From NCBI RefSeq assembly GCF_988242995.1, contig NZ_OZ547043.1: a stretch of DNA of 64,000 nucleotides; one strand, written 5' to 3'. Positions 1-6,136 of the stretch are shown here, one piece after another. Position 1 is the first letter of the stretch. The number at the start of each line of letters is the position of its first letter. The position numbers and the translations under genes are program-made. The notes beneath the pieces are model-generated. The model was given only the letters and a program-made list of their open reading frames with translations, was not told the DNA's origin and did no database searches.

Positions 1-795
1 ACTCCAGTAACGGGCGGTCTCGTCATGAATCGTGAACGGGCGCAGTTCCGCCACATTTGGGCAAAAAATCAGGCGTAGTACAGCTTTGAAAAATTCAATC
101 AGGGCAAAGGCGTTGAGAAACAAACTTTGTTGGAAAGCGATGGTGCGACTGCCCGCATTCAGGTTGTCGCTTAATACCTGGCCGACAAACAATGTCAGCG
201 CCAGTAACAGCAGGTCGATAATAAACGCCCCGATAATCATCGCCGGAAGCTGCAACCAGTTACTGCGCTCACGATTTTTTTGCCGCGCCCACTGACCCAT
301 TTTGCGATACAGCGGCAGTGCACACAGGCGAATCAGCCAGTAAAAACCAAACACTAATACCGCTAACATTGAAAAATGGGTCAGCGCATTGCTGAAGGTT
401 TGTGGATTAAACGGCTTATGCGGGGAGCCGGTGATATTGCGATAAAGTTGCCCGAAGCGGGCGGAAAGGGCTTCACCATAATGGCGGCTGACTTCGGTGA
501 CCTTTTGCAGCACGGTTTGCTCTTCAACCAGCGTCGGCGGCACGATCTTTGGTACGGGTTCCGCAGGGGGCGTAGCGGCGACGGTGCGCAACTGGTCGAT
601 CAACTCTTTACGCGAGGTGTCATTATCCAGCACATCCGCCAGTGCGCCATAGGCCGCTTTTTTTTGTTCGATATCCGGTTCCGGGGCCGGTTCAGTCGTT
701 GAGTCCGTTGTCGTTGTGGTTGTAACGCCGGGTATGGATACCGCGTGGGCAGGTGCGCCCAGCAGGCAGAAGAGGATGAACAGGATCCACCGCAT
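1..795 (-). CDS. ybiO: Mechanosensitive channel YbiO, N-terminal part only (gene runs off the window start)
   Basis: Minus-strand frame from the ATG at 795 reads MRWILFILFCLLGAPAHA..., matching the YbiO N-terminus (signal peptide then Thr-rich stretch). The 3' end lies beyond position 1. Confidence 0.85.
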   Translation of the reverse strand, partial: MRWILFILFCLLGAPAHAVSIPGVTTTTTTDSTTEPAPEPDIEQKKAAYGALADVLDNDTSRKELIDQLRTVAATPPAEPVPKIVPPTLVEEQTVLQKVTEVSRHYGEALSARFGQLYRNITGSPHKPFNPQTFSNALTHFSMLAVLVFGFYWLIRLCALPLYRKMGQWARQKNRERSNWLQLPAMIIGAFIIDLLLLALTLFVGQVLSDNLNAGSRTIAFQQSLFLNAFALIEFFKAVLRLIFCPNVAELRPFTIHDETARYWS

Positions 796-911
796 GACTC
801 CTCCAGTGAGAAAACAGAGCAAAAAGATAAGTATAGATGCTGGGGGAGGGGCGATTTTAAATGAGAGGAATCTGGTGTGCCTCCCTTTCGGGGGAAAGGG
901 AGGCTGAGAAG

Positions 912-1634
912 TTAAGAGACGTGCTGCAAAAATTCCTGCAAGCGCTGGCTCGGTGGGTTCTTGATCAACACCTGCGGATCGCCATCTTCCGCAATCCGGC
1001 CTTTGTCGATAAAGATCAGGCGCGAAGCTACTTTCTCGGCAAAACCGATTTCGTGGGTCACGATCACCATCGTCATCCCTTCTTCAGCCAGATCCTGCAT
1101 AACCTTCAGCACTTCATGGCGCAGTTCCGGGTCAAGAGCGGAAGTCGGTTCATCAAACAGCATCATTTTCGGCTTCACCGCCAGCGCGCGGGCGATGGCC
1201 ACACGCTGCTGTTGACCACCAGAAAGTTCGGAAGGGTAGTGATGTGCACGTTCTGCCAGACCGACTTTCGCCAGCAGCTCACGTGCCAGTTTTTCCGCCT
1301 CTTCTTTGTTCGCGCCACGCACGCGTAGCGGACCAAACATCACGTTTTCCAGCGCCGTCAGATGCGGGAAGAGGTAAAACTGCTGGAACACCATACCCGC
1401 TTCCTGGCGAATCAGGCGCTCGTCAACTTTCGGATCGTTAACCTTCAGGCCATCGACAATCAGATCGCCGGAGGTGATTTCTTCCAGTTTGTTGATGCAG
1501 CGCAGCAGGGTCGATTTACCGGAACCGGACGGCCCGATAATCACCACGACTTCGCCCTGAGCAATGTTCAAATCGATATTGTGCAGCACCTGGGTTGGAC
1601 CAAAATGCTTGGAGACGTTTTTAAATTCAATCAC
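912..1634 (-). CDS. glnQ: Glutamine ABC transporter ATP-binding protein
   Basis: 240-aa ORF with Walker [13 protein letters not shown] signature LSGGQQQR and Walker [12 protein letters not shown]; matches GlnQ. Sits immediately downstream of glnP. Confidence 0.95.
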
Positions 1635-2290
1635 AGGATTTTCATCCTTCTTTCCAGACGACGCAGAATAAAGCTCAGCACCAGGGTAATAATCAGATAG
1701 AACACCGCCACGGCGCTCCAGATCTCAAGGGCGCGGAAGTTACCGGCAATAATTTCTTGCCCCTGACGGGTCAGTTCCGCCACGCCGATCACAATAAACA
1801 GCGAGGTGTCTTTAATGCTGATGATCCACTGGTTACCCAGCGGCGGCAGCATACGACGCAGTGCCAGCGGTAAAATGACGTAGCGAATGGTTTCCCAACG
1901 TGAAAGACCGAGCGCCAGTCCTGCTTCACGAAAACCTTTGTGAATAGACAGCACCGCACCACGCGTGATTTCCGCAATGTACGCGCCGGAGTTGATCATG
2001 ATGGTGACCACCGCCGCAGTAAACGGGTCGATGCGTAAGTCGTTAAACGCCATCGGCAGGGCGAAATAGATAAACATCACCTGGACGACGATAGGTGTGC
2101 CGCGGATCACTTCAATAAAGACCAGCGCGACGTGGTTGGCTATCCAACCACCGAAGGTGCGTGCAAAACCTGCCAGCAATCCGATCACCAGGCCGCCAGC
2201 CAGACCGAGGACCGAGATCCACAGGGTCATTTTGGCACCTTCAATCAGAAGCGGAATGGCAGGCCAGATGGCACTCCAGTCAAACTGCAT
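1631..2290 (-). CDS. glnP: Glutamine ABC transporter permease
   Basis: 219-aa polar amino-acid permease; stop overlaps the glnQ start by 4 nt, consistent with translational coupling. Confidence 0.95.
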
Positions 2291-2374
2291 ATGTTGTTCC
2301 TGTTACCGTGGTGTAAATAATCAAATTCAGGGTAATTAATGGCCCCGGAGCGGGTTTGCGCCCCTCACCCTAAT

Positions 2375-2395
2375 CCTCTCCCCAGAGGGGAGAGG
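2375..2395 (-). other. Intercistronic GC-rich stem-loop between glnH and glnP (perfect 9-bp stem CCTCTCCCC/GGGGAGAGG, 3-nt loop)
   Basis: Read directly from the sequence. On the glnHPQ mRNA it lies about 35 nt after the glnH stop. No U-run follows, so it is not a canonical intrinsic terminator; more likely an mRNA-stabilising or attenuating hairpin. Confidence 0.5.
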
Positions 2396-2428
2396 GAACT
2401 GCCAGTGCGCCTTACAGGCGTAGCGTTA

Positions 2429-3190
<762 letters not shown>

Positions 3191-3229
3191 CTATCCACGG
3201 GACGATCCCCTGCGTGACATTCACATATA

Positions 3230-3245
3230 TGAAAAAATCGTGCCA
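3230..3245 (-). promoter_or_regulatory. Sigma-54 promoter glnHp2 (-24 TGGCAC, N5, -12 TTTCA)
   Basis: Minus strand reads TGGCACGATTTTTTCA with the GG and GC elements at correct spacing, about 55 nt upstream of the glnH ATG. glnHPQ is an established NtrC/sigma-54 operon. Confidence 0.6.
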
Positions 3246-3318
3246 GTTTTGCAACTCATTGATTTATCGAGATGCGGCAAAAACGTGATGCACGATTTAT
3301 AGGGCAATACCCTGAAGA

Positions 3319-3347
3319 TGCACCATTCTGGGGCACCAAACTGGTGC
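3319..3347. promoter_or_regulatory. NtrC-type enhancer sites (GCACCA-N3-TGGTGC palindrome and an overlapping TGCACCA half-site)
   Basis: tgcaccattctggggcaccaaactggtgcgc contains the dyad GCACCAaacTGGTGC, about 90-115 bp upstream of the sigma-54 element. Confidence 0.5.
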
Positions 3348-3507
3348 GCTAAAATTGTGCACTCAACACAGTGATTATTTAGCGTAAAACCTGATGAAAA
3401 AACAATCTTTATGTAACGATTGTGTGATGATGTGGATACAAAAAATTTACTTAATCAGCTGGAGATAGCAGATGGATGCACTAAATAAGTGCGTTGAGGT
3501 GGGCTGC

Positions 3508-3538
3508 AAAACAAAACGGCCTCCTGTCAGGAAGCCGC
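3508..3538 (-). terminator. Rho-independent terminator downstream of dps
   Basis: Minus strand forms the hairpin GCGGCUUCC-UGACA-GGAGGCCGU followed by UUUUGUUUU, about 40 nt after the dps stop. Confidence 0.55.
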
Positions 3539-3578
3539 TTTTATCGGGTACTAAAGTTCTCCACCATCAGCGATGGAT

Positions 3579-4226
<648 letters not shown>

Positions 4227-4342
4227 TTAGTTATATTGATAAGAACAATTCTTATTTATTGGCTCGCCAGGAATTTTCGGAATAAATATGCTTTTGCATA
4301 ATTCGATACATAAAGACGGTGTAGAGGAAAAGTAGCGAAAAA

Positions 4343-4372
4343 TTCTGCATGGTTATGCATAACCATGCAGAA
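4343..4372. terminator. Perfect 30-bp palindrome (TTCTGCATGGTTATG/CATAACCATGCAGAA); probable rhtA terminator
   Basis: Exact reverse-complement symmetry read from the sequence. It starts 9 nt downstream of the rhtA stop on the minus strand and is followed there by UUUUUCGC. Confidence 0.6.
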
Positions 4373-4380
4373 ATGTAAAT

Positions 4381-5268
4381 TTAATTAATGTCTAATTCTT
4401 TTATTTTGCTCTCTTTGCGTACTGTCAGCGTAGACCCCATTGAAGCGGCGATGATAGCGCCGAGCGCCAGCAGCTGTATGGGTGTCAGTGTTTCTCCGAG
4501 GAAAATCATCCCGGAAACGGCAGCCAGCGCCGGTTCCATGCTCATCAGCGTACCAAATGTCCGTGTTGGCAAACGGGTGAGGGCAATCATTTCCAGCGAA
4601 TAAGGCAGAGCGGTCGAGAGAATAGCGACCGCCAGACCCAATGGAATAACCGACCAGTGCCAGAGTGCTTCACCAGCCTGAAGCGCTCCAATTGGCACGA
4701 AAATTAACGCTGCAATCAACGAACCAATTGCCACCGTCGCAGGGCCATGTTCCGCTCCTGCGCGTTGCCCACTTAAAATGTAAATAGCCCAACAAGCCCC
4801 GGCCCCCAGAGCCAGCGCACAGCCGGTTAAATCGACATGGGAAACGTCTTGCCCCAGCGGTAGCAGGAACCACAGACCAAGAACCGCCAGAACAACCCAG
4901 ACGAAATCTACCGGGCGACGAGAAGAGAACAGCGCCACCGCCAGTGGTCCGGTGAACTCCAGCGCCACCGCAATACCCAGCGGTACCGTCTGAATAGAAA
5001 GATAAAAAAGATAATTCATCCCCCCCAGCGAAACGCCGTAAAACAACAGCGGTAACCGCTGCTCTTTGGCAAAGCGCAGTCGCCATGGCTTAAAGAACGC
5101 GATGAGGATCAGCGTTCCTAATGCCAGACGCAGCGCAGTGACACCCGGTGCGCCCACCAGAGGAAAAAGTGACTTAGCTAACGAGGCTCCACCCTGAATA
5201 GACGCCATGGCAACGAGCAATATGACTATTGGTAACCAGACCGGCATTTTACGTAATGAACCAGGCAT
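4381..5268 (-). CDS. rhtA: Threonine/homoserine exporter (DMT superfamily)
   Basis: Multi-pass membrane ORF; start taken at MPGSLRKMPVWLPIV... (295 aa), the second Met of the track ORF. Matches RhtA. Confidence 0.9.
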   Translation of the reverse strand: MPGSLRKMPVWLPIVILLVAMASIQGGASLAKSLFPLVGAPGVTALRLALGTLILIAFFKPWRLRFAKEQRLPLLFYGVSLGGMNYLFYLSIQTVPLGIAVALEFTGPLAVALFSSRRPVDFVWVVLAVLGLWFLLPLGQDVSHVDLTGCALALGAGACWAIYILSGQRAGAEHGPATVAIGSLIAALIFVPIGALQAGEALWHWSVIPLGLAVAILSTALPYSLEMIALTRLPTRTFGTLMSMEPALAAVSGMIFLGETLTPIQLLALGAIIAASMGSTLTVRKESKIKELDIN

Positions 5269-5620
5269 CCTTTCTCCCACAAATATCTAGACTTAAGTAA
5301 AGCGTGGAGTGTACTGGATATACCCAATGCTGGTTGAGCATTTGTTGAAAAAATTTTCCCCCGTTTTGACTAAAATGCGCCAGGATTGATGGAATCATTA
5401 GTCTGGTGATTAGGAATAATCTGGATGAATGACAGGGAAAACATGCGTAATACTTACGCAGTTCTCTGAAAAAGTGATTTAAATTTAGATGGATAGCGGC
5501 GTATGGAAACGTTCTGTTACATGAAATGGCCCGTTAGACATCACAAATCGCGAAGAGTTTCCCATTAATTTTTGATATATTTAAAACTTAGGACTTATTT
5601 GAATCACATTTGAGGTGGTT

Positions 5621-6136
5621 ATGAAAAAAATTGCATGTCTTTCAGCACTGGCCGCAGTTCTGGCTTTCACCGCAGGTACTTCCGTAGCTGCGACTTCTAC
5701 CGTAACTGGCGGTTACGCACAGAGCGACGCTCAGGGCCAAATGAACAAAATGGGCGGTTTCAACCTGAAATACCGCTATGAAGAAGACAACAGCCCGCTG
5801 GGTGTGATCGGTTCTTTCACTTACACCGAGAAAAGCCGTACTGCAAGCTCTGGTGACTACAACAAAAACCAGTACTACGGCATCACTGCTGGTCCGGCTT
5901 ACCGCATTAACGACTGGGCAAGCATTTACGGTGTAGTGGGTGTGGGTTATGGTAAATTCCAGACCACTGAATACCCGACCTACAAACACGACACCAGCGA
6001 CTACGGTTTCTCCTACGGTGCTGGTCTGCAGTTCAACCCGATGGAAAACGTTGCTCTGGACTTCTCTTACGAGCAGAGCCGTATTCGTAGCGTTGACGTA
6101 GGCACCTGGATTGCCGGTGTTGGTTACCGCTTCTAA
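5621..6136 (+). CDS. ompX: Outer membrane protein X
   Basis: MKKIACLSALAAVLAFTAGTSVA signal peptide followed by a beta-barrel sequence ending ...GVGYRF; 171 aa. Confidence 0.95.
   Translation: MKKIACLSALAAVLAFTAGTSVAATSTVTGGYAQSDAQGQMNKMGGFNLKYRYEEDNSPLGVIGSFTYTEKSRTASSGDYNKNQYYGITAGPAYRINDWASIYGVVGVGYGKFQTTEYPTYKHDTSDYGFSYGAGLQFNPMENVALDFSYEQSRIRSVDVGTWIAGVGYRF

Follow-up and report, generated by a model that had tools for sequence, protein, structure and literature searches.

The stable hairpin located between glnH and glnP in the 64-kb stretch of Escherichia coli DNA analysed in this study (the window) is, on the evidence of its sequence, the Watson-Crick stem-loop of a slightly degenerate copy of the BoxC (PIT/TMECO) repeat. 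An RNA 3′ end of E. coli K-12 was found to map 4 nt past the stem of this hairpin. We lean somewhat towards a role of the BoxC stem as a barrier to 3′-exonucleases, which would leave an mRNA containing only glnH whenever the glnPQ part of the transcript is cleaved or aborted.

Gene Layout and the Intercistronic Hairpin

The window is of E. coli origin, and its gene order and annotation were the same as those of the homologous region of K-12. The genes of the glnHPQ operon are placed as follows (ORF list; K-12 annotation):

2429–3175, minus strand: glnH CDS, periplasmic glutamine-binding protein, first gene of glnHPQ
1631–2290, minus strand: glnP CDS, permease
912–1634, minus strand: glnQ CDS, ATPase

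The nucleotide identity of glnH between the window and K-12 is 98.9%. The gap between glnH and glnP corresponds to positions 2291–2428, exactly 138 bp, and the following hairpins were found in it:

2375–2395, minus strand: the reported hairpin, a 9-bp perfect stem with a 3-nt loop (sequence, folding, perfect-hairpin scan)
2408–2420, minus strand: a small 5-bp hairpin, CGCCU-GUA-AGGCG, just 3′ of the glnH stop (folding, −8.1 kcal/mol with flanks)

An earlier note on this DNA had described a perfect 9-bp GC-rich stem in the gap after glnH, and the stem was confirmed at 2375–2383 / 2387–2395 on the transcribed minus strand. The plus strand carries CCTCTCCCC at 2375–2383, the loop AGA at 2384–2386 and GGGGAGAGG at 2387–2395, and the mRNA strand reads CCUCUCCCC-UCU-GGGGAGAGG. 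The folding energy of the stem-loop was −16.8 kcal/mol when it was folded alone and −18.3 kcal/mol with the neighbouring bases, and folding of the whole gap kept the hairpin in both the MFE and the centroid structures. The hairpin pattern occurs once in the 64-kb window, versus 0.01 occurrences expected by chance, and only about eight distinct perfect hairpins of at least 9 bp were returned by the perfect-hairpin scan of the same window. As the earlier note had stated, no U-tract follows the stem, the tail being AUUAGGGUGA, and a terminator scan of the minus strand did not call the glnH–glnP hairpin.

The interval 2340–2428, originally assigned to the feature, does enclose this hairpin but also takes in the weaker one at 2408–2420. 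The latter is intact in the window strain, is broken by three substitutions in K-12 (ACACCTGTAAAACGC) and varies among E. coli strains; its 3′ half overlaps the BoxC left flank GCGCAC, and it is probably non-functional.

An Rfam scan of window positions 1–6000 at E ≤ 1 gave no match at the glnH–glnP hairpin. The sole match in this region, to ctRNA_p42d at 3506–3541 on the minus strand, was weak (26.9 bits, E = 0.011; gathering score 50). It falls on the terminator hairpin of dps, where K-12 has a Term-seq 3′ end at 848340 (window 3511), and was rejected as a chance resemblance to a terminator stem-loop.

Identification of the BoxC Repeat

The hairpin forms part of a longer unit, composed of the following elements on the minus strand:

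2350–2410, minus strand: BoxC/PIT/TMECO repeat copy with left flank GCGCACTGGCAGTT, 36-nt core and right flank CGCAAACCCGC (nhmmer profile, family alignment, blastn)
2361–2396, minus strand: BoxC 36-nt core (comparison with Table 1 of Holder 2015 and with the pattern)
2396–2387, minus strand: C block of the core
2386–2384, minus strand: loop 1
2383–2374, minus strand: G block 1
2373–2371, minus strand: loop 2, TTA
2370–2361, minus strand: G block 2

The mRNA-strand sequence of the core, CCCTCTCCCC-TCT-GGGGAGAGGA-TTA-GGGTGAGGGG, is a three-block motif, and its orientation places the blocks on the mRNA in the order C block, G block 1, G block 2. This motif was named BoxC, later PIT (potential intrastrand triplex) and later TMECO (Bachellier et al. 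1990s; Hoyne/Maher 2000–2002; Holder et al. 2015, PMC4666352), and BoxC is also counted among the known stem-loop families of E. coli (PMC2267715).

A profile was prepared from an alignment of 17 K-12 BoxC copies, which came from twelve K-12 loci and did not include the glnH–glnP copy. Searching of the window with nhmmer and this profile gave only one significant match, at 2405–2357 (envelope 2412–2345, E = 4.1e-12, 41.5 bits). The alignment of the 17 copies also revealed that the family unit reaches past the 36-nt core into common flanks, GCGCAC..CAGTC on the left and GAACAGGCC.GCAC or GGCGCAAAC on the right, both of which are present in the glnH–glnP copy. The latter shares with the family the order C block-G block-G block, the flanking consensus, the intergenic location and the occurrence in many copies in E. 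coli, as well as the second loop TTA, which is that of type A BoxC. The core flanks CACTGGCAG and CTCCGGGGCC were also considered as arms of an ancestral REP split by BoxC insertion. This was rejected for the left side, where GCGCACTGGCAGTT is the BoxC family's own left flank; the right flank TCCGGGGCC may be such an arm.

Comparison of the core with K-12 TMECO copy no. 16 showed identity at 34 of 36 positions. Relative to that copy, the change G6→T restores a base pair and removes the internal stem mismatch typical of the commonest K-12 type ("A mm"), so that the glnH–glnP stem is perfect whereas the commonest type is not. The copy also differs from the strict TMECO pattern of Holder 2015, CCCTCNCCC-N3-6-GGGNGAGGG-N3-GGGNGAGGG, in a single base: block 2 is GGGAGAGGA, with the last base changed from G to A (G23→A), and every other position fits. 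The G23→A change was present in the window, in K-12 and in all the sampled E. coli strains, and because it breaks the strict search pattern no copy at 847 kb is listed in Holder's table of 23 K-12 copies. The glnH–glnP element can thus be classified as BoxC by homology and as one-base-degenerate by the strict TMECO expression. When applied to the spacers of other species, the strict expression missed even the E. coli and Escherichia sp. E1V33 copies; it was dropped, and the profile search was used instead.

The gap was also compared by blastn with 5,426 complete E. coli genomes, and the full gap was found in 5,401 of them (99.5%), nearly always at ≥95% identity. Altogether 21409 matching places were counted in 5425 genomes, individual genomes having a median of 4 and at most 11. 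The secondary matches, exemplified by one in the gntP–fimH spacer, covered the repeat part only (query 28–79). This limited extent and the median of four places per genome indicate that the centre of the gap is a dispersed repeat. From its sequence relationships, then, the hairpin is not a regulatory invention specific to this locus; its membership of the BoxC family had been missed in the earlier note.

The function of such repeats could in principle reside in the DNA, an intrastrand purine-motif triplex on the non-template strand acting on replication, recombination or local genome stability. TMECO consensus oligonucleotides form a stable intrastrand DNA triplex in vitro, as determined by CD and NMR, and greater variability between strains has been reported for TMECO loci (Holder 2015, PMC4666352); at the present locus the G-rich strand is the non-template strand of glnHPQ. 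We nevertheless regard a DNA-level element as highly improbable. According to Holder 2015 (PMC4666352), DMS footprinting revealed no triplex in vivo, and RNA does not form triplexes of the purine-motif type. In the glnH–glnP copy the end G of block 2 is lost and block 3 is changed in several strains, the triplex potential thus eroding while the duplex stem is intact, and the locus is very stable, as seen from the 5401/5426 genomes with the full spacer.

RNA 3′ Ends at the Hairpin

The following mapped RNA end coincides with the BoxC copy:

2371, minus strand: homologue of the in-vivo RNA 3′ end at K-12 847200 (Adams et al. 2021 Term-seq), 4 nt past the stem, tail AUUA

The Term-seq evidence was taken from a published curated supplement table and not from raw reads. 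In Supplementary file 1 of Adams et al. 2021 (PMC7815308), an "orphan" 3′ end is given at K-12 847200(−) in all three tabs, which correspond to growth conditions, with 30332, 130459 and 42295 reads. Its position was transferred to window position 2371 by the ungapped alignment of the window and K-12 (offset +844829). The printed 61-nt context of this end is ...CCCTCTCCCCTATGGGGAGAGGATTA|GGGTGAGGGG, in which the 3′ end is nucleotide 51 (format checked on thrL), so that the last nucleotide of the RNA is the A of the TTA loop, 4 nt beyond the last stem pair. The peaks are modest, the minus-strand floor in these tables being about 25000, yet reproducible, and the end exceeds the only operon-distal end listed in the same tab (42295 vs 29295 reads, the latter at 845561). 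Term-seq had been proposed in the earlier note as a check for 3′ ends at the hairpin, and the published K-12 table answers it affirmatively in three growth conditions. Direct RNase E-type cleavage at the GG|AUU motif that overlaps the stem end was rejected as the source of the RNA end, as it would leave G2375 at the terminus and the observed nucleotide is A2371.

BoxC copies with a perfect stem in the opposite orientation also have 3′ ends about 3–5 nt past the stem, one after lldD (3781065+) and one between hrpB and mrcB (164636+). For BoxC copies with a mismatched stem, no Term-seq entry of Adams 2021 contains the sense-orientation consensus. These data hint that perfection of the stem decides whether a BoxC copy marks an RNA end. 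Since the opposite-orientation copies give ends with no third block downstream, the hairpin alone seems sufficient for 3′-end formation, and participation of a triplex in that process was rejected on the same grounds. The occurrence of ends past the hairpin in both orientations, the third block not being needed, is a further point against the DNA-level element considered above. In the inverted BoxC pairs an end was observed at one member only, namely at the distal perfect-stem copy of hrpB–mrcB (L082, K-12 164547–164631) and at the proximal perfect-stem copy after lldD (L093, K-12 3781028–3781156).

An RNA 3′ end 4 nt past a strong G/C stem is also what a leaky terminator or attenuator would give, with the polymerase stopping at the hairpin in some rounds and fewer transcripts reaching glnPQ. 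Partial termination of this kind had been suggested in the earlier note, and it now appears improbable. The E. coli tail AUUAGGGUGA is devoid of a U-tract and the hairpin is not called by the terminator scan; the table of Adams 2021 contains no Rho-termination region at 8471xx or 8472xx; and in the inverted pair of hrpB–mrcB the end is at the distal hairpin, not at the first one that the polymerase meets. Moreover, according to Hoyne & Maher, as cited in Holder 2015 (PMC4666352), PIT elements neither act as terminators nor affect RNA polymerase.

The Site after glnH in E. coli and Other Enterobacteriaceae

The glnH loci of 80 other GTDB Enterobacteriaceae species were compared with that of E. 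coli, which gave 81 glnH–glnP spacers of 73–166 nt. A strong hairpin was found after glnH in 81/81 spacers, starting usually about 10–30 nt past the stop and in a few cases up to about 70 nt past it. The best 40-nt window of each spacer had a folding energy between −13.0 and −28.3 kcal/mol (median −20.4). When compared with dinucleotide shuffles, the spacers showed a median z of −3.4, and 66 of the 81 were below all 30 shuffles. In the 80 other species the hairpins were of the following types:

41/80 species: REP-like CCGG...CCGG palindromes (including E. albertii and the cryptic "E. coli" lineage L003)
25/80 species: simple GGGGCG...CGCCCC stems, 24 with U-rich, terminator-like tails
13/80 species: other hairpins
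1/80 species: BoxC (Escherichia sp. E1V33, L002)

The 24 species in which the equivalent hairpin is GGGGCG..CGCCCC with a U-rich tail have what looks like an intrinsic attenuator, and partial termination may be a common solution at the post-glnH position; this is the comparative evidence in favour of a terminator. The terminator-like hairpins of Lelliottia, Kluyvera, Kosakonia and other genera agree with that of E. coli in their position past the glnH stop and in their similar stability, but they are not repeats and have U-rich tails, whereas the E. coli element is a repeat without a U-tract.

Among all the glnH loci, the BoxC profile matched only those of K-12 and L002. The nucleotide identity of glnH to that of the window was 95.6% for L002, 94.7% for L003 and 93.0% for E. 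albertii, and from this order and the distribution of the profile matches it follows that the BoxC-type spacer is younger than the split from the L003 lineage. None of the 5,426 E. coli genomes carried the REP-type spacer of the sister lineages (L003 and L004), only its last 35 nt being in common. Lineage L003 is represented by NZ_JAATUR010000020.1, labelled E. coli strain SCPM-O-B-8794; its REP-type spacer of 94 nt was seen in 0/5426 RefSeq complete E. coli genomes, and to judge from these comparisons it probably belongs to a cryptic Escherichia clade.

The 18 stem positions were invariant in nine E. coli strains and Escherichia sp. E1V33, and the loop varied (TCT, TAT or GCC). In several strains the third block was changed to GGGTGAAGGG, GGGTGA-GGG or GGGTGAGGAG, by a substitution, a deletion or another substitution, respectively. 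The invariance of the stem in these 10 sequences is suggestive, but a selection test did not reach significance: with 10 variable columns, the chance that all of them miss the 18 stem positions is P ~0.25.

The decay of the third G block is what would be expected of an element that is not maintained whole, and it raises the question of whether BoxC is a neutral passenger, inserted or copied into a tolerant spacer, with the 3′ end a decay intermediate such as any stable hairpin gives and of no consequence for the ratio of GlnH to GlnPQ. The BoxC copies of K-12, like the intergenic one at glnH–glnP, are found between genes, in both orientations and beside genes of all classes, with no correlation with the function of the neighbouring genes (Holder 2015, PMC4666352), and glnHPQ was not flagged for differential decay (see below). 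We think neutrality rather unlikely. The site after glnH holds a strong hairpin in each of the 81 species, irrespective of the sequence that forms it; the element is retained in 99.5% of the E. coli genomes, none of which keeps the REP-type spacer of the sister lineages; and the variation in the sampled strains lies outside the stem.

Remainder of the Spacer and Operon Surroundings

Besides the BoxC copy, the following features were recognised in the spacer and at the operon end:

2317–2340, minus strand: AU-rich linker AUUAAUUACCCUGAAUUUGAUUAU with two RNase E-like RN|WUU motifs, a candidate endonuclease entry site (motif scan, inference)
2296–2316, minus strand: conserved spacer end with the GlnZ sRNA pairing site (around C-18 of glnP, window ~2308) and the glnP Shine-Dalgarno sequence AGGA
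879–904, minus strand: hairpin after glnQ, GCCUCCCUUUCCCCCGAAAGGGAGGC, without a U-tract, an operon-distal 3′-end structure (perfect-hairpin scan)

Conservation of the final ~35 nt (TTTGATTATTTACACCACGGTAACAGGAACAACAT) of the spacer extends to 5418/5426 E. coli genomes and, for the most part, to other genera. GlnZ pairs just upstream of the glnP Shine-Dalgarno sequence and represses glnP (Walling 2022, 10.1101/2022.04.01.486790; Miyakoshi 2022, PMC9731577), the pairing position being placed by a published glnP C-18G mutagenesis primer. A pulse of GlnZ in Salmonella brought glnP and glnQ down by more than 4-fold, and glnH was not among the genes listed. The spacer end with the GlnZ site is a separate regulatory feature of the same gap, which was absent from the earlier note.

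For the K-12 homologue of the hairpin after glnQ, one of the three Term-seq tabs gives a 3′ end, 845561(−), and the other two give none; the end of the glnHPQ operon may be leaky or Rho-dependent. The next ORF, ybiO, begins about 85 nt beyond this hairpin. In K-12 an insert of 144 bp, consisting of two inverted REP sequences (BIME), directly follows the glnQ stop (K-12 845597–845740, L001 ~2598–2741). The window strain is without it (window 905–911), and the glnHPQ end is thus polymorphic for the presence of a REP cluster. On the other side of the operon, Adams et al. list an RNA 3′ end at K-12 848057, corresponding to window ~3228 (minus strand), in the 5′ UTR 53 nt upstream of the glnH start; it is possibly a premature termination or processing site in the glnH leader.

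Proposed Mechanism and Decay Data

In the exonuclease-barrier model, the downstream glnPQ part of the transcript would be cut, or its transcription or translation aborted. This might be triggered by cleavage in the AU-rich linker or by what follows the pairing of GlnZ/Hfq at the glnP ribosome-binding site. Trimming of the RNA by 3′→5′ exonucleases (PNPase, RNase II) would then halt a few nucleotides beyond the 9-bp G/C stem, the product being a glnH-only mRNA ending ...GGGGAGAGGAUUA-3′. The end at 847200 would accordingly be formed by trimming rather than by termination, and it might raise GlnH relative to GlnPQ or uncouple glnH from control by GlnZ. This would be the mechanism of the malE–malF REP, carried out by another repeat family. 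The layout of the spacer, in which the AU-rich linker, the GlnZ site and the Shine-Dalgarno sequence lie downstream of BoxC, fits the barrier model.

Stable stem-loops without U-tracts are known as the steady-state 3′ ends of trimmed transcripts, in dependence on PNPase and RNase II (Dar & Sorek 2018 NAR, PMC6061677). An intercistronic hairpin behind the substrate-binding gene is the classical device by which its message outlives those of the permease genes, as in malE–malF. Another study by the same authors added four further ABC-transporter operons of this kind, and among the ABC-transporter operons flagged there it was as a rule the substrate-binding gene that was stabilised (Dar & Sorek 2018 PLoS Genet, PMC5927463). 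In this rifampicin decay screen, carried out in one growth condition, glnQ-glnP-glnH was among the 390 operons analysed (S2) and not among the 47 that decayed differentially (S3), which weakens a strong stoichiometric effect for that condition. The earlier suggestion that the hairpin protects glnH from 3′ decay is thus supported by the Term-seq end 4 nt past the stem, but not by the decay data, from whose list of 47 operons glnHPQ is missing. The same screen removed operons having an intergenic intrinsic-terminator motif or known substantial Rho-dependent termination (Dar & Sorek, PMC5927463). As glnQ-glnP-glnH was kept by this filter, partial termination at the hairpin is weakened too.

The closest known parallels are the REP/BIME stabilisers of malE–malF and hisJ–hisQ (Newbury et al. 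1987, as summarised in PMC5927463 and PMC6061677). According to these summaries, they too are intercistronic hairpins made of a dispersed repeat directly after the binding-protein gene of an ABC-transporter operon, with an RNA 3′ end at the hairpin base and no U-tract. The glnH–glnP repeat differs in belonging to another family, the E. coli spacer being without the REP consensus, and in that glnH was not flagged in the 2018 screen as differing in stability from glnPQ. The hairpin-protected 3′ ends of Rho-dependent or processed transcripts (PMC6061677) likewise lie immediately past a stable stem-loop with no uridines following, whereas the glnH end is internal to the operon, 81 nt before the next start codon, and no Rho region is listed for it. 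By analogy, the glnH–glnP element, which is neither a REP nor an intrinsic terminator, resembles in function most the malE–malF REP stabilisers and the hairpin-protected ends.

Conclusions

A hairpin that shields the binding-protein message of an ABC-transporter operon is a textbook mechanism, and the unusual part of the present case is BoxC as the element. For about 30 years, work on the BoxC/PIT/TMECO repeats has dealt with them as DNA triplex motifs; no function has been assigned to them, and tests for promoter and terminator activity were negative. In the searchable literature no paper was found on the glnH–glnP hairpin, on its half-life, on the 847200 3′ end or on an RNA-level role of BoxC. 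The reproducible 3′ end at this and at least two other BoxC copies suggests that the activity that matters may reside in the RNA and require nothing but the duplex stem. The finding of a REP-like, terminator-like, BoxC or other hairpin after glnH, depending on the genus, argues that this slot is under selection and its occupant replaceable.

We tentatively put forward the wider possibility that BoxC hairpins, like REPs, have been co-opted as modular determinants of mRNA 3′ ends and stability. At glnH–glnP, an ancestral hairpin of the REP or terminator type might have given way to BoxC at the root of the E. coli lineage, with no loss of a function that all Enterobacteriaceae species would maintain through one sequence or another; this function would be to provide a glnH-only mRNA that is spared the GlnZ-triggered loss of glnPQ. 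If true, this would be the first RNA-level function for the long-orphan BoxC/PIT family and a clean case of structural turnover under functional constraint. A barrier hairpin at this position is relevant, too, to the question of how glnPQ can be repressed by GlnZ while glnH is retained.
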